From a phage, in the sequence record PZ026127.1: a DNA stretch of 64,000 bases. One strand, 5' to 3'. Below are positions 7,890 through 18,598 of this stretch, piece by piece. A program made the translations under genes and the position numbers. The notes beneath the pieces were generated by a model, which did not search any database, was not told where the DNA came from, and worked only from the letters and a program-made list of their open reading frames with translations. Within the stretch, counting starts at the first letter, position 1; every line of letters begins with the position of its first letter.

Positions 7890-8211
7890 TTTATCTGATT
7901 TAGATAATTTCGTTAAAGATACCGAAGAGGGTCCTAGTGACCCTCGTTATTATGAGAAATCATTAGATATAATCCGTAAGTCAATGGGATCGGTTAAGCA
8001 GGAAATTATGCTTACTTTACCCGATGGCACTGCTCACATCGTTTATGTGATGAATATTGTTATTGAGAAAGATGGAAAAGTGTCGGTTGATTTCGGAACA
8101 CCTTCCGAAGACCGAAAAGAAGAGCTGGCGCTTCATGTAGAAAAATGTGTTACAATGCAAATACAAGAAGAACTGGATAAAATTAAATCTAAGAGGTGGT
8201 GGAAGTGGTAG
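7882..8211 (+). CDS. 40: gp40-like protein (head vertex assembly helper)
   Basis: 109 aa ORF between uvsX and 41, as T4 gene 40. Confidence 0.6.
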   Translation: MTDLSDLDNFVKDTEEGPSDPRYYEKSLDIIRKSMGSVKQEIMLTLPDGTAHIVYVMNIVIEKDGKVSVDFGTPSEDRKEELALHVEKCVTMQIQEELDKIKSKRWWKW

Positions 8212-9635
8212 AAACTATTTTGGCTCAACTGCTAGGCAATAGTGATTATTTCACTAAGGTCTGGCCTTATATGAATGATTCTTATTTTGACCAGGGTCCT
8301 GCAAAGACCCTTTTCAAAGAAATTAAAAAACATGTCAATGAATATAATGCAGTGCCTTCTAAGAACGCATTGAGCATTGCATTAGATAACAGTACGCTTT
8401 CAGAAGTTGAACACCAAGGCGCTAAAGAGCTTTTAAGTTCGCTGAATGCCGGACCTGAAGACCAAGAATGGTTGGTTAAAGAGACGGAGAAATACGTTCA
8501 GAAAGCAGCGATGTATAATGCAACTTCAAAAATCATTGAAATCCAAACTAATGCCGACCTTCCGGTTGAGCAACAAAATAGAAAACTTCCAGGTATTGGT
8601 GCTATTCCGGATATCATGCGTGATGCATTATCGATTTGTTTCGATTCTGAATTAGGTCATGACTGGATGGATGACTATGAAGAACGATTCAAAAGTTATT
8701 CCGATAAAGCACGTAAGGTTCCATTCCGTCTTAATATTCTGAATAAGATTACCAAGGGTGGTGCTGAGTTTGGTACTGAAAACGTATTGTTGGCAGGAAC
8801 AAACGTAGGTAAGTCTCTTGGTCTTTGTTCATTGGCTGCTGATTACCTTCAATCCGGTTACGATGTTCTTTATATCTCCATGGAGATGGCAGAGGAAGTA
8901 TGTGCTAAGCGTATCGATGCCAACCTTCTGGACGTGTCGCTGGATGATATCGATGATGGTCACGTCTCGTGGCCTGAATATAAAGCTAAGATGGATAAAT
9001 GGCGTTCAACTGCTACCTTGGGTCGTTTAAAGATTAAACAGTACCCTACCGGTGGCGCTAATGCCGATACATTCCGTGCATTATTAAACGAATACAAGCT
9101 CAAACAAAACTTTGTCCCACAGGTCGTTATCGTTGACTACTTGGCTATCTGTGCATCGTCTCGTACGAAAGTTTTCTCTGAAAACAGTTACGGATTGATT
9201 AAGATGGTTGCTGAAGAACTACGTGGACTTGCAGTAGAGAAGAAATTACTGTTGTGGACTGCAGCCCAGACTACTCGTGGTGCGAACGTTGCAGCCGAAA
9301 TCGATATGGCCGATATTGCTGAATCCTTTGGTATTGCACATACTGCAGACTTCATGTTGGGTGTGGTCGAGACAGAAGAGTTCGCTCAGATGGGTATGCA
9401 GATGGTTAAGCAGCTTAAATCTCGTTATGGCGATAAGAGCTACTACAACAAATTTAAGATTGGCGTTAAGAAAGGAAATCAACGTTGGTACGAAGTTGAA
9501 GATGATTCCAACCCAGGCCCAGTGAACACTGTTCGTGAGGCTACAGGTGAGATGAATCGCCAGGCCGAGGTCAATCGACAGACGCGTGTTAATAGAAGTG
9601 ATTTGGACGATTTAGCAGCATCTATCAAATTTTAA
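8205..9635 (+). CDS. 41: gp41 replicative DNA helicase (DnaB-like)
   Basis: Matches T4 gp41 from the MVE(T/I)IL N-terminus onwards; Walker A GTNVGKS; GTG start. Confidence 0.95.
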   Translation: MVETILAQLLGNSDYFTKVWPYMNDSYFDQGPAKTLFKEIKKHVNEYNAVPSKNALSIALDNSTLSEVEHQGAKELLSSLNAGPEDQEWLVKETEKYVQKAAMYNATSKIIEIQTNADLPVEQQNRKLPGIGAIPDIMRDALSICFDSELGHDWMDDYEERFKSYSDKARKVPFRLNILNKITKGGAEFGTENVLLAGTNVGKSLGLCSLAADYLQSGYDVLYISMEMAEEVCAKRIDANLLDVSLDDIDDGHVSWPEYKAKMDKWRSTATLGRLKIKQYPTGGANADTFRALLNEYKLKQNFVPQVVIVDYLAICASSRTKVFSENSYGLIKMVAEELRGLAVEKKLLLWTAAQTTRGANVAAEIDMADIAESFGIAHTADFMLGVVETEEFAQMGMQMVKQLKSRYGDKSYYNKFKIGVKKGNQRWYEVEDDSNPGPVNTVREATGEMNRQAEVNRQTRVNRSDLDDLAASIKF

Positions 9636-10613: not shown

Positions 10614-10642
10614 GTTTACAACGGTCTATGGTAGTGATACTA
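10614..10642 (+). promoter_or_regulatory. early promoter
   Basis: GTTTAC at 10614, TGATACTAT extended -10, then CCTATCAAC box. Confidence 0.5.
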
Positions 10643-10671
10643 TGGACCTATCAACTACCGAGGAGAACATT

Positions 10672-10965
10672 ATGAAAAAGTTATTAATCGCAGCAATCCT
10701 TACAGTAGCATCATGTGGCACAGCTCCAGTTACGGCTGGATTGGATAAAGACCTTTGTGAATGGTCTATGACTGCAGACCAAGAATCGGTTGAACATCAG
10801 ATTTATGCCGATATCATGAACATCACTAAACGCGACCGCCCTGATATGGCTAAAGAAGTGTCAGACCAATTAGCTTCAGGTGGTGTTATGCAATATAACT
10901 GGAATTTGTATTGTGATGCCAATTTCGATAACAAAAATATCGTTAAAGAGGTGACAGGTGAATAA
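10672..10965 (+). CDS. secreted/lipoprotein-like small protein (possible spackle-type periplasmic protein)
   Basis: 97 aa from ATG 10672 after GAGGAGAA; signal peptide MKKLLIAAILTVASCG; lies in the 41-61 interval where T4 has sp. Confidence 0.5.
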   Translation: MKKLLIAAILTVASCGTAPVTAGLDKDLCEWSMTADQESVEHQIYADIMNITKRDRPDMAKEVSDQLASGGVMQYNWNLYCDANFDNKNIVKEVTGE

Positions 10966-11621: not shown

Positions 11622-11787
11622 GATTTCTGTATTCGAGTTATTCGAAGAATATGAAATCATATCAAAAGACCAAGAAGCTATCCATATTATTGCCGGTGAT
11701 GGGGTGACTTGGATTATTCCACTTTACCACGAAGATACGTACGAAGTCACTGATGCAAATGGTGATAAAGCTATTTTCGTAATATAA
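11596..11787 (+). CDS. hypothetical small protein
   Basis: 63 aa from ATG 11596 preceded by GAGAAGGGAA. Confidence 0.4.
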   Translation: MTAMCTGSKISVFELFEEYEIISKDQEAIHIIAGDGVTWIIPLYHEDTYEVTDANGDKAIFVI

Positions 11788-11803
11788 ATAAGGCCAGGAG
11801 CCT

Positions 11804-11965
11804 ATGAAATCTTTTAAAGAAGTTATGAACGAAGATATGGTCGCAGGCGATGCAGGTGGTAACCCATCTAATATTGCCTCCGGAACTACCTCAGGCGCGG
11901 TCGTCAACAAAGGGCCTGAACAAATCCCATCTAAAAAGCGTAAAGAAAAATCCGAAAACGAATGA
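11804..11965 (+). CDS. hypothetical small basic peptide
   Basis: 53 aa, RBS AGGAG, Gly/Ser-rich with KKRKEK tail. Confidence 0.35.
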   Translation: MKSFKEVMNEDMVAGDAGGNPSNIASGTTSGAVVNKGPEQIPSKKRKEKSENE

Positions 11966-12003
11966 TATAATGGCTCTATTAATTTAGAGCCCAAGGAAAA
12001 ATA

Positions 12004-13032
12004 ATGTCATATGTCGATAGAGAATTTGCTGTACGTGCCTTGAATTACCAACCTAAATTCAGACAAGTAACTGGTAGTGATTTTAAATTAAACTGTCGTT
12101 GTCGTGTATGTGGCGACTCCCTAAAAGATGAGAACAAAGCTCGTTTTTGGGCCTATCCGGCCAATGACGGCTCCGTAATGCTGCACTGTTTTAACTGTGA
12201 CTATTCAGCAGGAATTAAGAAGTATCTATACGAATATGAGCCTGATTTATATCGAGAATATATTCTTGAGAAACATAAAGAGCAATCGTTCGGGAGACAA
12301 GCTGCACCTAAGGTGGAGATATCAGAAAAGATTAAAGCCAAGATGCCTGTCATCGAAAAGCTTAATTTCTGTGAACGTCTGGATAGAATGCCAAAGGACC
12401 ATCCTATTATCAAATATGTGACGTTACGTTGCATTCCTGAAAACAAATGGAACCGGCTGTGGTTTACTAAAGAATGGCCGGCATTGGTGAACTCTGTCAA
12501 TCCAGGGACCTATTCTAAAGAAATGCCTGAGCCTCGTTTGGTTATTCCAATTTTCAATAAGAATAAACAAATTGAAAGTTTTCAGGGTCGAGCCTTACGT
12601 AAAGATGCTCCACAAAAATATATTACAATAAAAGCTCATGACCAAGCTACAAAAATATATGGAATGGATACAGTTGACGAACGTCAGTTGGTGTGGGTAA
12701 TGGAAGGCCCTATTGACTCTTTGTTTGTTCCGAATGCAATAGCAATTACTGGCGGGTCGTTGGACTTGGCTATGGTTCCATGTAAAGAAACTCGTGCCTG
12801 GGTAATGGACAATGAACCCCGCCATCCTGACACAATTAAGCGTATGCAACGATTAGTTGATGCTGGCGAAAGGGTTCTATTCTGGGACAAGGCTCCATGG
12901 CCTTCTAAAGATATAAATGATATGATTATGAAAGATAAAGCTGATATAAATGATGTACTGGCATATATGAAAGCTAATATAGCCCAAGGTTTAATGGCAA
13001 AAATGAGACTTTCAAAATATTCTAAAATTTAG
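12004..13032 (+). CDS. 61: DNA primase gp61
   Basis: 342 aa; N-terminal zinc-binding CRCRVCGD ... HCFNCD and overall match to T4 primase. Confidence 0.9.
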   Translation: MSYVDREFAVRALNYQPKFRQVTGSDFKLNCRCRVCGDSLKDENKARFWAYPANDGSVMLHCFNCDYSAGIKKYLYEYEPDLYREYILEKHKEQSFGRQAAPKVEISEKIKAKMPVIEKLNFCERLDRMPKDHPIIKYVTLRCIPENKWNRLWFTKEWPALVNSVNPGTYSKEMPEPRLVIPIFNKNKQIESFQGRALRKDAPQKYITIKAHDQATKIYGMDTVDERQLVWVMEGPIDSLFVPNAIAITGGSLDLAMVPCKETRAWVMDNEPRHPDTIKRMQRLVDAGERVLFWDKAPWPSKDINDMIMKDKADINDVLAYMKANIAQGLMAKMRLSKYSKI

Positions 13033-13229
13033 GCAGGAACTCCGCTAAAGAATCCAATTATGCTTAATACGTGTTCCATTGTAACCGCTGGTAAAATTAT
13101 CCCTTGGCTAGCGGCTACAGGGACTACTAGAAGATTCCAAAGGAATACGTCTAGCGCAAGAAAACCTAACATCATTTTCTTGTCTTTCTTTTCGGCCAAT
13201 TTCCAGATTTGGTAAAAAATACTGCCCAT
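13029..13229 (-). CDS. small hydrophobic membrane protein on opposite strand
   Basis: 66 aa ORF; on - strand a near-perfect SD (AGGAGGATAAC-ATG) precedes the start; hydrophobic C-terminal half. Confidence 0.45.
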   Translation of the reverse strand: MGSIFYQIWKLAEKKDKKMMLGFLALDVFLWNLLVVPVAASQGIILPAVTMEHVLSIIGFFSGVPA

Positions 13230-13320
13230 GTTATCCTCCTGTTAAATTAATATTTATTCGCTTTAATCTAACAGTTTATAATTATCTAACTTACTAATGA
13301 ATTGAAAAGGAAAAAATATA

Positions 13321-13839
13321 ATGGCATACTTTAACGAATGCGCAAACCTGATTGATGGTGTTGATAAAGCTGAGGAAGCTTATTTTAATGCTCTGATTCA
13401 TGAAGATAAAGACCCTCTGCAAGTTATGCTTGATATGCAGAAATCTTTACAGGTTCGTTTGGCTAATGACCGTGAATATTGTTACCATCCGGACAAATTA
13501 GCGACAGCCGGTGATGTTGTTGCTTGGATGCGTGAACAGAAAGATTGTATTGACGATGAATTCCGTGAACTTCTGACTTCCCTCGGTGAAATGTCTAAAG
13601 GTGAGAAAGATGCATCTGCTGTATGGAAAAAATGGAAAGCCCGTTACCCGGAAGCACAAGCCAAACCTATTTCAGAAATGTCTCCTGAAGACCAGCTTGA
13701 AATTAAATTTGAACTCATTGATATTATGCACTTCGTATTCAATATGGCTATTGGCCTGAATATGTCGGCTGAAGAAATGTTTAAACTTTATTATCTGAAG
13801 AATGCTGAAAACTTTGCAAGGCAGGACCGTGGCTATTAA
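13321..13839 (+). CDS. 56: dCTP pyrophosphatase (dCTPase/dUTPase, MazG-like)
   Basis: 172 aa, matches T4 gp56 size and sequence character; located between 61 and soc. Confidence 0.85.
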   Translation: MAYFNECANLIDGVDKAEEAYFNALIHEDKDPLQVMLDMQKSLQVRLANDREYCYHPDKLATAGDVVAWMREQKDCIDDEFRELLTSLGEMSKGEKDASAVWKKWKARYPEAQAKPISEMSPEDQLEIKFELIDIMHFVFNMAIGLNMSAEEMFKLYYLKNAENFARQDRGY

Positions 13840-14497
13840 GGCTAAGTTTTATAGAACTTATTTGATAAAAATTAGGACGCCGAAAGGTGTCTTTTGGTAT
13901 GGTGGTAAACATGAAACCTTTATACTAAATCCAAATAAAGATAGATATCCAGGTTCTGGCAAAATCTTATGGAATATGTATAAAAAGTATGGTCTAAAAT
14001 ATAAAATACGTTGGTTTGTAGGCCACCAAAATTTAGAAGAATCTTTTAATCATGAAAGACTTTTAATAGCCAAAATAAGAGAAAAGCATCCTAACGAATG
14101 CTTGAATATATTACCAGGTGGCGCTGGCAGCGAAGGACATAAATGGACTGAAGAACAGTGTATAGAGCACAAGCTTAGATTAAATAAACCTGAAACTAAG
14201 ATTAAAATGAGGAAGGCTCAAGCTATAGCTCAGAATAGGCCTGAACGTAAAGCTCGTCAATCAGAAATAATGAAAGAGTTTTATGAGAATGGTGGGAATA
14301 AATTAATATCTGAAGCCACTTCTAAAGCTCAACGAACTGCTCCTCATTGGCATGAACCATTGAAAAGCGAAATCTATAATATTTGGCTTTCATTAGGTAA
14401 ACCAACTACAGGTCCTGTAGTCAAAGAACTTAAAGGTAAATATGACGTTACCGCAAGTGCTCTCAAAAATTTAATATACTCTTTTAGAGATATATAA
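13802..14497 (+). mobile_element. segF: free-standing homing endonuclease-like gene (SegF-like, GIY-YIG-type)
   Basis: 231 aa ORF overlapping 3' end of gene 56, at the position where T4 carries segF; N-terminal Y-x-x-Y-L-I-K ... F-W-Y-G-G-K resembles a GIY-YIG module; basic helix-rich C-terminus. Confidence 0.55.
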
Positions 14498-14531
14498 ATA
14501 CACCTGTAATTAAACAACAAAGGAGTTAATT

Positions 14532-14765
14532 ATGGGTGGTTTCGTTAATATCAAAACCTTTACACATCCAGCTGGTGAAGGTAAAGAAGTTAAAGGTACT
14601 GAGGTTTCGGTTCCGTTTGAGATTTATTCAAACGAGCACCGTATTGCAGACTCTCATTATCAGACTTTCCCTTCGGCCGTTGCAGCCTATACTACTGTAG
14701 TGACTGATGCAGCCGATTGGCGAACTAAGAACGCAGCAATGTTCACGCCGACCCCAGTAGTTTAA
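14532..14765 (+). CDS. soc: small outer capsid protein Soc
   Basis: 77 aa; VNIKTF ... HYQTFPS motifs match T4 Soc. Confidence 0.85.
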   Translation: MGGFVNIKTFTHPAGEGKEVKGTEVSVPFEIYSNEHRIADSHYQTFPSAVAAYTTVVTDAADWRTKNAAMFTPTPVV

Positions 14766-17710: not shown

Positions 17711-17778
17711 ACCACCCGGTTTAATTGAAAGGCAAAGTCCTTGATTCATTATACCGTCGAAAATTTAAAGCAAAAAAG

Positions 17779-17808
17779 TGTTTACTTTACCGAGCAACAT
17801 GATACTAT
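17779..17808 (+). promoter_or_regulatory. early promoter
   Basis: GTTTAC ... TGATACTAT with downstream CCTATCAGC box. Confidence 0.5.
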
Positions 17809-17848
17809 AGACCTATCAGCTAATCGTCCGTAAGATGAGAAAAATATT

Positions 17849-18598
17849 ATGCCTACTATTAAAACTAACGATGAATTTGAGTTAAAGGTTTACAAACGTC
17901 GCGAACACACTAAAGCCTCTGCCAAAAAACGTGGTAAGGACTTTAACCTGTCTAGTAAGTACGTTCGTAGACTTCTTGAACAAAAAGTGTGTGCATATTC
18001 AGGCGAGCGCTTTGATGAGAATTCAGATAAAGATAAGATTTCGTTTGAACGCTTTAACAACGATATAGGTTATATCGAAGGTAATGTAATCCCGGTTAAA
18101 GTTAAGTACAACGGGTTGCGAGCTGATTTGTCTTTAGATGAATTGAAACGTGCACAGACTCGTTTAGCGTCCCGTATTTCAGGTGGTTCTAAAATGCCTA
18201 ATAGTTTTAAAGTTACCCCAGATAATTATTATAAAATTCGTAAAATAGTTAAAAATATTAAAGATACCCAAAGAGGTCTTAAAAAGCGTGAAAAACGTCT
18301 TAAGGACCTTATTAAATCAGGAGCCACTGATAATACCCCTTCTGTCATCGCGGTTAAGGCCCGTATCCATGGTTCTAACGCTTCAATAGGTACTATGGAA
18401 AAGGGTCTTAAATCTTTAATTGGTGGGCCTGATTGGCGTGTCAAGTTTAAATTGTCTGAAGCAGAAACGCGTTACGATATGTATGATAAAATTATTCAAG
18501 GTCTGGAGCGTTTAGAACACCTTTCTTTTATTGACAAAATGAAGTTGAAAAAAGGTCTTCCGCTGAATGCTTCAATTTTTTCACTGATTAGAGGTTAA
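17849..18598 (+). CDS. hypothetical basic protein at the position of T4 srd; contains degenerate HNH-like segment
   Basis: 249 aa; CAYSGERF ... GYIEGNVIPV resembles an HNH core with catalytic residues substituted. Confidence 0.45.
   Translation: MPTIKTNDEFELKVYKRREHTKASAKKRGKDFNLSSKYVRRLLEQKVCAYSGERFDENSDKDKISFERFNNDIGYIEGNVIPVKVKYNGLRADLSLDELKRAQTRLASRISGGSKMPNSFKVTPDNYYKIRKIVKNIKDTQRGLKKREKRLKDLIKSGATDNTPSVIAVKARIHGSNASIGTMEKGLKSLIGGPDWRVKFKLSEAETRYDMYDKIIQGLERLEHLSFIDKMKLKKGLPLNASIFSLIRG

Follow-up and report, generated by a model that had tools for sequence, protein, structure and literature searches.

A conserved opposite-strand gene, probably late-type and encoding a predicted small membrane protein, faces the primase gene in a Dhakavirus and across T-even phages

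Our comparative analyses concern a short opposite-strand gene in the phage DNA PZ026127.1 (64,000 nucleotides (nt), the whole of which is called the window below). There, an open reading frame (ORF) of 66 codons lies on the minus strand between the primase gene 61 and gene 56, which encodes dCTPase/dUTPase, and runs convergently into the 3' end of gene 61. Judged by similarity to sequenced phages, the window belongs to Dhakavirus: positions 12000-14600 align over their full length with Escherichia phage AnYang at 97.6% identity, and with JS98, WG01 and other Dhakavirus phages at ~90-94%. An earlier note on this DNA had described the ORF as hydrophobic, as preceded by a near-perfect Shine-Dalgarno sequence and by a late-promoter-like motif with one mismatch, and as lying in a region otherwise read from left to right. 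These descriptions were confirmed, the last of them locally, the sole large block of minus-strand ORFs in the window being at 37.7-48.4 kb. The note had also stated, correctly, that T4 carries dam between genes 61 and 56, and had seen no methyltransferase in this interval, which measures 288 nt; a tblastn search of the whole window with T4 Dam indeed found no homologue (best E 2.3). We consider it likely, and with some confidence, that the small ORF is a genuine and conserved gene of late type whose product is a small membrane protein.

The window protein matches the profile of family phrog_2024 (E 5.8e-28, residues 1-64 on positions 1-64 of 65), as does the syntenic ORF of T4, also of 66 amino acids (aa; E 1.5e-31). 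As an object the gene is already known, under the names phrog_2024, RB69ORF029w and WG01 ORF29, the last with 100% aa identity to the window protein and all of them annotated as hypothetical; Pfam and NCBIfam offer no model of the family, and none of the solved structures matched it. Tblastn with the window protein finds this copy, which we call Dhaka-type, in 139 phage records (E < 0.01), at 95-100% identity in Dhakavirus and 59-77% in T4-like phages of Klebsiella, Enterobacter, Citrobacter and Pectobacterium. A second, T4-type copy occurs in 693 phage records, in 687 of them at full length. Within subtypes the ratio of non-synonymous to synonymous substitution (dN/dS, Nei-Gojobori) is 0.09-0.34. 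In comparisons across genera the synonymous sites prove saturated, yet the protein keeps 73-80% identity; for the window against Marfa, for instance, the proportions of synonymous and non-synonymous differences (pS and pN) are 0.79 and 0.13. Variable alignment columns number 37, 20 and 61 at codon positions 1, 2 and 3, and the proposed frame is the only one open in 15 of the 15 loci examined. This purifying selection, together with the frame left open in every locus, argues for a genuine gene. A chance ORF, that is, the shadow of a plus-strand signal without a product, might have been suspected from its shortness, its AT-rich composition and its omission from the T4 RefSeq, JS98 and AnYang records. 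Such a reading is nevertheless ruled out by the comparative data, and its probability is practically negligible: dN/dS lies well below 1, the antisense frames are interrupted while the ORF's own frame is not, and a PHROG family exists whose members occur in unrelated phage types.

In the T4 RefSeq record NC_000866, the ORF lies at 17738-17938 (plus strand of that record; our locus L004, 3239-3439), preceded by GATAAATA and AGGAGG, within a stretch of 309 nt from dam to gene 61 that bears no annotation. In T6 (locus L002, 2471-2473), ATT stands where T4 has its ATG start, behind an intact AAGGAGG and a AATAAATA box, and the RefSeq gene starts at the next in-frame ATG (61 aa); the T6 copy may be either an ATT-initiated gene or one encoding an N-terminally shortened protein. 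The two subtypes are paralogues. The VR25-type loci L013 and L014 carry both in tandem (2295-2492 and 2501-2701), in the order T4-type copy with a CATAAATA box, 8 nt, then Dhaka-type copy; T4 retains one subtype and Dhakavirus the other.

The expression signals are conserved as well. The minus strand upstream of the ORF reads gAATAAATAttaatttaacAGGAGGataacATG, and a GGAG(G) stands at equal spacing in every T4-like homologous locus. The late-promoter-type box was compared across 13 T4-like loci, in 11 of which a NATAAATA box ends 12-22 nt before the start. It takes the perfect form TATAAATA in three loci of Slopekvirus and Kanagawavirus (Marfa, L011 and Entb_45), the form AATAAATA in the window, WG01, RB69 and T6, the form GATAAATA in T4 and PM2, and the form CATAAATA in VR25-type phages and JD18. 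The box of the window deviates from TATAAATA at a single position, by A at -13. No other natural deviation is commoner among T4 late promoters: of the 50 listed by Geiduschek and Kassavetis, 32 are perfect and nine have A(-13) for T, and late transcription in T4 may run in either direction (PMC2988020). In the 64 kb, with both strands counted, ATAAATA was observed 10 times against 24.3 +/- 5.1 expected, a depletion of ~2.4-fold. Of the ten NATAAATA sites in the window, seven stand 13-38 nt before an ORF start that has a Shine-Dalgarno-like sequence, among them those of soc and of minus-strand ORFs (215, 217 and 1323 aa) within the 37.7-48.4 kb block. Outside the sites at which it is used, the motif thus seems to be avoided, a pattern that hints at selection against stray late promoters, and because ATAAATA is so rare in the window the box at the small gene is more than would be expected by chance. 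We infer from these motifs that the small gene is probably transcribed late. A weak sigma-70-like match at 13245-13216 (9 of 12 positions) overlaps the ATG, and such matches are no commoner here than in shuffled sequence. The features of the locus are collected in Table 1.

Table 1. Features of the small opposite-strand gene and of its surroundings in the window
Feature	Position	Strand	Basis or remark
Coding sequence of the 66-aa small membrane protein (predicted; phrog_2024)	13029-13229	-	ATG start, TAA stop at 13029-13031; ORF listing, sequence
Shine-Dalgarno sequence AGGAGG	13235-13240	-	5 nt before ATG; sequence
T4 late-promoter-type box AATAAATA, A(-13) variant of TATAAATA	13251-13258	-	Ends 21 nt before ATG
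Convergent stop-codon overlap, 4 nt (TTAG)	13029-13032		TAA of the small gene (-) and TAG of gene 61 (+)
Codons 1-19, basic amphipathic N-terminal segment, predicted cytoplasmic	13173-13229	-	5 K/R, 2 D/E by charge count; AlphaFold2 helix 2-11
Codons 20-41, predicted transmembrane helix with invariant W31-N32 and P37-x-A39	13107-13172	-	Hydropathy; AlphaFold2 helix 14-41, block pLDDT 83-86
Codons 42-66, G43-x-x-(L/I)-P47-x-V-T50-x-(E/D) loop, then short hydrophobic C-terminal helix	13032-13106	-	Alignments; AlphaFold2 loop 42-50, helix 51-62
Gene 61, primase, conserved convergent neighbour	12004-13032	+	Annotated DNA primase at the syntenic site in WG01 and AnYang
Putative MotA-dependent middle promoter of gene 56	13256-13282	+	ATTcGCTTTA at 13256-13265, 11-bp spacer, -10 element TATAAT at 13277-13282
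Gene 56 (dCTPase/dUTPase), far edge of the variable interval	13321-13839	+	WG01 and AnYang annotations
Gene 41, helicase	8196-9635	+	Local gene order
Small early ORFs, including dmd, 61.4 and spackle homologues	Between genes 41 and 61	+	
SegF-like homing endonuclease, 231 aa	13802-14497	+	
soc	14532-14765	+	

The earlier note had proposed that the small ORF was acquired or rearranged locally, and its comparison with other T-even phages leads us to the opposite conclusion. The gene occupies the opposite strand and runs towards the 3' end of gene 61 in at least eight genera of Tevenvirinae, namely in Dhakavirus (WG01, MX01), Tequatrovirus (T4, T6), Mosigvirus (RB69, where it is annotated RB69ORF029w), Slopekvirus (Marfa), Jiaodavirus (JD18), Moonvirus (CF1), Kanagawavirus (Entb_45) and Mosugukvirus (PM2), as well as in VR25-type phages and several metagenomic T4-like contigs. 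In RB49 (Krischvirus, outside Tevenvirinae), genes 61 and 56 are directly adjacent, with no such ORF. The stop-codon overlap of the window recurs with the same 4-nt length in the annotations of WG01, T6, T4, RB69, Entb_45, CF1, MX01 and fPS-65, but is not universal, being replaced by a 17-nt gap in JD18 and by a 21-nt overlap in PM2. It is the other side of the ORF, between its promoter and gene 56, that varies in its cargo: there is none in the window, WG01 and RB69, dam in T4, dam and an ORF of 186 aa in the Dhakavirus MX01, and one to three small ORFs in Entb_45, CF1 and the loci L020 and L030. By these gene orders the small ORF is an old syntenic fixture of T-even-type phages, and the cargo between it and gene 56 the variable part. 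That the ORF replaced dam in the window phage was a natural thought, given that the window lacks the dam gene of T4 and MX01, and that the interval from gene 61 to gene 56 is a known variable spot. T4 and MX01 carry both genes, however, with dam always on the far side of the ORF, and the synonymous divergence between genera is saturated, as under vertical descent; local acquisition is ruled out by the synteny, and we regard it as highly improbable. In one metagenomic T4-like lineage (L020, 3204-3578; L021, 515-889), an extra ORF of 124 aa lies between the small gene and the primase gene, so that the attachment of the small gene to the 3' end of gene 61 is common, not absolute.

Several neighbouring features deserve mention in their own right. 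The MotA-like box of the putative gene 56 promoter overlaps the minus-strand late box by 3 nt, the two forming a back-to-back pair in the 91-nt intergenic gap; the plus-strand element may act as a middle promoter for gene 56, to judge from the published MotA consensus (a/t)(a/t)(a/t)TGCTTtA, located 12 +/- 1 bp from the -10 element (PMC2988021). A perfect TATAAATA at 11783-11790 (+) stands 13 nt before a gp61.1-like ORF of 53 aa (11804-11965) in the early direction, just upstream of gene 61, and could be a late promoter feeding 61.1 and 61. The spackle homologue of the window (10642-10965, +) has an upstream in-frame extension and then the start MKKLLIAAILTVASCG, which resembles a signal peptide with a possible lipobox (VASC) at its end. 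The segF-like gene shares 38 nt with the 3' end of gene 56. AnYang and ABTNLsp5 also carry it, but it is missing from WG01, JS98 and most other Dhakavirus genomes, with which the alignment splits in two. Like segF in T4, it is a mobile insertion.

The predicted architecture of the protein is shared by the family. Family members have 4-7 K/R in the N-terminal 16-22 residues, a hydrophobic core of ~19-22 residues and a C-terminal portion of 25-28 residues with 0-1 K/R and 1-2 D/E, the window protein having 0 K/R and 1 D/E in this tail. The positions W31, N32, P37, A39, G43, P47 and T50 and an acidic residue at 52 are invariant or nearly so, and the window protein carries the family core W-N-x4-P-x-A-x3-G-x2-(L/I)-P-x4-(E/D), including E52; the broad alignment of 15 sequences was too divergent for pattern scans. 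AlphaFold2, run on an alignment of 14 sequences, gave the three helices and the loop listed in Table 1, with a mean predicted local distance difference test score (pLDDT) of 74.6. By the positive-inside rule the N-terminus is expected in the cytoplasm, and since codons 42-66 hold no K/R the tail is predicted to be periplasmic or interfacial. The model and the charge pattern thus point to a probable single-pass protein, N-in/C-out, with a short periplasmic or interfacial tail. Sequence searches of Pfam (E <=10), NCBIfam (E <=1), PADLOC and the PDB returned no meaningful match, and Foldseek, run with the AlphaFold2 model against viral structures, returned family members only. A lipoprotein is ruled out, the protein having no cysteine. 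It could be imagined instead that residues 1-41 form a long signal peptide and that a hydrophobic peptide of ~25 aa is freed to the periplasm or the outer leaflet. The N-region is indeed basic, and P37-x-A39-x-(S/A/T)41 obeys the -3/-1 rule of signal peptidase I in most members, as at AAS/Q in the window, AIA/H in T4, ASA/H in JD18 and ALA/Y in CF1 (the slash marking the cleavage site). At 16-19 residues the hydrophobic core is long for a signal peptide, however, the invariant W-N within it argues that the helix itself is functional, AlphaFold2 makes residues 14-41 one continuous helix, and P0076 (SPW/F) and RB69 (LVA/H) fit the rule poorly, all of which leads us to think cleavage improbable.

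The family is narrow: 1.84 billion representative proteins, searched with a profile, contained only 16 matches at E <=1e-3. Three of these, P0074, P0076 and P0077, come from outside the T4-like phages and are encoded in metagenomic contigs that are siphovirus-like and T5-like, with a lambda-J-type tail tip, a pb9-like domain and endonuclease VII; P0074 and P0077 match phrog_2024 at E 6e-11 and 1e-9, and P0076 comes from the profile match alone (E 5.6e-4). In one lineage (L022, 3001-4610; L026, 10001-11610; L034, 5874-7483), the phrog_2024 member heads a tightly packed operon of four genes, coding in order for the member itself (82 aa) and for proteins of 180 aa, 109 aa and, of T4-lysozyme type, 161 aa; a gene for an Rz-like protein with a transmembrane segment and a coiled coil is convergent to the operon, and a lambda-J-type tail-tip gene lies beside it. 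In L019 and L029, the gene immediately before the member is that of endonuclease VII. Searches of bacterial and archaeal genome contigs with the siphovirus-type members as query found no relative, and so no prophage lysis-cassette context, while the search of viral contigs added only the L022 lineage. All these siphovirus contexts are late regions, of which one hints at lysis and the others at morphogenesis, none being decisive. They also suggest another possible function, that of a membrane-anchored morphogenesis factor assisting head, tail or packaging steps late at the inner membrane in place of lysis. The non-T4 members lie among structural and late genes, next to a tail-tip gene or after endonuclease VII, and in L019, L022 and L034 the member overlaps the start of a protein of 180 aa with a weak match to the 'minor tail protein' family phrog_1924; late timing would fit equally well. 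We find this function unlikely, although less so than peptide cleavage, as the phrog_1924 matches are weak (E 6e-4 and 7e-8), the searches run showed no similarity to known assembly factors, and in T4-like phages the gene is far from the structural clusters.

On the reading that we favour, gp55-modified RNA polymerase would transcribe the small gene from the AATAAATA box, starting near 13245 and opposite to the surrounding early and middle genes. Translation from the strong Shine-Dalgarno sequence would then yield an inner-membrane microprotein of 66 aa with a basic cytoplasmic N-terminus, one transmembrane helix (~19-41) and, on the periplasmic side, a hydrophobic, acidic tail of 25 residues bearing the conserved G-x-x-L-P-x-x-x-x-E/D motif, and this protein would act at the cell envelope late in infection. 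The idea of the earlier note that this is a late membrane peptide agrees with the evidence in silico, namely the conserved late-type box, the hydropathy and the AlphaFold2 model; one transmembrane helix is predicted by both of the latter, with a marginal free energy. The note's further suggestion, a part in lysis timing or exclusion, is still a guess. An accessory part in lysis or its timing is the function that we rate highest, although on balance it is doubtful, and its chief rivals are a morphogenesis factor at the membrane and a cleaved secreted peptide.

The convergent position may add a second layer of control. A terminator scan of both strands of 11800-14000 found no terminator-like site. 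Type I toxin-like hydrophobic peptides are controlled by a dedicated antisense RNA that overlaps their mRNA; in the present locus an Rfam scan of 12700-13500 gave no match. As no terminator was detected for gene 61, its early transcripts are expected to continue through the small gene in antisense, and such read-through would be the sole antisense RNA expected there. The late transcript of the small gene should, for its part, extend antisense into gene 61. More speculatively, early transcription may keep the small gene silent until the late phase, and the mutual antisense transcription may sharpen the early-to-late switch for both genes. In Yersinia phage fPS-65 (L028, 605-645), the record places an early-strand terminator within the opening codons of the small ORF. 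At the corresponding position T4 has, as read by eye, a similar short hairpin and T-run, and the window has no terminator-like site. One might go further and see in the locus a device of transcriptional interference, in which the late promoter shuts off the early and middle expression of gene 61 and the peptide is incidental. The convergent genes with their 4-nt overlap and the lack of a terminator-like site are compatible with it, and T4 is known to have several sites where one strand is transcribed at one time and the other strand at another (PMC2988020). The strength of purifying selection on the protein, the conserved start and Shine-Dalgarno sequence, the tandem paralogues of VR25-type phages and the siphovirus homologues, which keep the protein without a convergent primase gene, all speak for the product, making a pure antisense device very unlikely and interference an additional effect at most.

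Taken together, the protein that we favour, a late envelope microprotein, can be placed in a wider picture in which phrog_2024 would be a late component of the inner membrane that nearly all T-even phages possess and that has been overlooked, involved in lysis control or another late envelope process, with two paralogous subtypes and distant relatives in T5-like siphoviruses, and kept silent early with the help of antisense primase read-through. As a whole this picture is more tentative still than the role in lysis. Several observations weigh against one or another part of the reading that we favour. Two of the 13 T4-like loci are without a well-placed NATAAATA box, CF1 having TATTAAATA and L020 a box 33 nt upstream. 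A crude transmembrane free energy is marginal for the window protein (+3.6 kcal/mol), so that the topology is not secure. The 1984 T4 record X01416 and the T4 RefSeq annotate neither an ORF nor a late promoter here, and our literature searches (T4 late and antisense transcripts at gene 61/dam, T4 ribosome profiling, RB69ORF029w, phrog_2024) gave no transcript, ribosome-footprint or peptide evidence for the small gene and no paper naming the family. As for lysis, the link to a lysozyme gene occurs in one of the three non-T4 contexts. A holin-like role in particular is disfavoured by an uncharged C-terminus, by a gene that adjoins the endolysin in no T4-like phage and by the lack of any match to the Pfam holin, RI, Imm or Spackle families.

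T4 is among the best-annotated viruses, yet this gene of 66 codons is absent from its RefSeq record, while relatives hold ~690 T4-type and ~140 Dhaka-type copies. Should its product turn out to take part in the timing or the inhibition of lysis, or in some other late step at the envelope, a textbook system would gain a component. The comparison also corrects the view of the small gene as strain-specific cargo, the true insertion hot spot being the promoter side of the ORF up to gene 56, where dam and small ORFs come and go, and it makes a case for adding the ORF to the T4, JS98 and AnYang records. The lasting interest of the locus lies in a very widely conserved late-type microprotein of no assigned function that the T4 reference annotation omits.

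Among known systems, the small phage holins (class II or pinholin, phage 21 S21-68, T7 gp17.5) are late membrane proteins of ~65-70 aa. The window protein resembles them in its size, in its predicted membrane location with at least one transmembrane domain (hydropathy, AlphaFold2 helix 14-41), and in having a hydrophobic segment followed by another of weak hydrophobicity; in UniProt, one entry of the phrog_2024 family has been automatically named 'Holin'. It differs from them in that its charged domain is N-terminal, not C-terminal, and in that adjacency to an endolysin gene is seen only in the siphovirus lineage of L022, L026 and L034. T-even phages, moreover, already have holin T. Because it lacks a charged C-terminus and matches no described holin family, we do not file it as a holin, and membership in a known holin family is ruled out on these same grounds. 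As a small T-even protein predicted at the envelope and encoded by a scattered single gene, it also recalls T4 RI (an antiholin), Imm and Spackle, without sequence similarity to them; the Pfam library that gave no match included Spackle (PF25676). Spackle, and in RB69 also imm, is encoded ~2-3 kb from the small gene in the same region from gene 41 to gene 56, as a separate upstream gene. These neighbouring genes are expressed early, or early and late, and lie on the early/middle strand, whereas the small gene is on the opposite strand with a late-type box; superinfection exclusion by Imm or Spackle calls for expression within minutes of infection.

In its signals the small gene resembles the T4 late units that depend on gp55, gp33 and gp45 and have TATAAATA, such as soc 1.3 kb away, with which it shares an 8-bp box followed by an AT-rich segment, as well as a short leader and a strong Shine-Dalgarno sequence. 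Its distance of 21 nt from box to ATG falls within the 13-38 nt of other such boxes in the window; T4's own copy differs in having G at -13, a rarer deviation than A(-13). The closest likeness of all is that to the phrog_2024/RB69ORF029w family itself, of which, by its full-length match, equal length, position and core motif, the window protein is a member.

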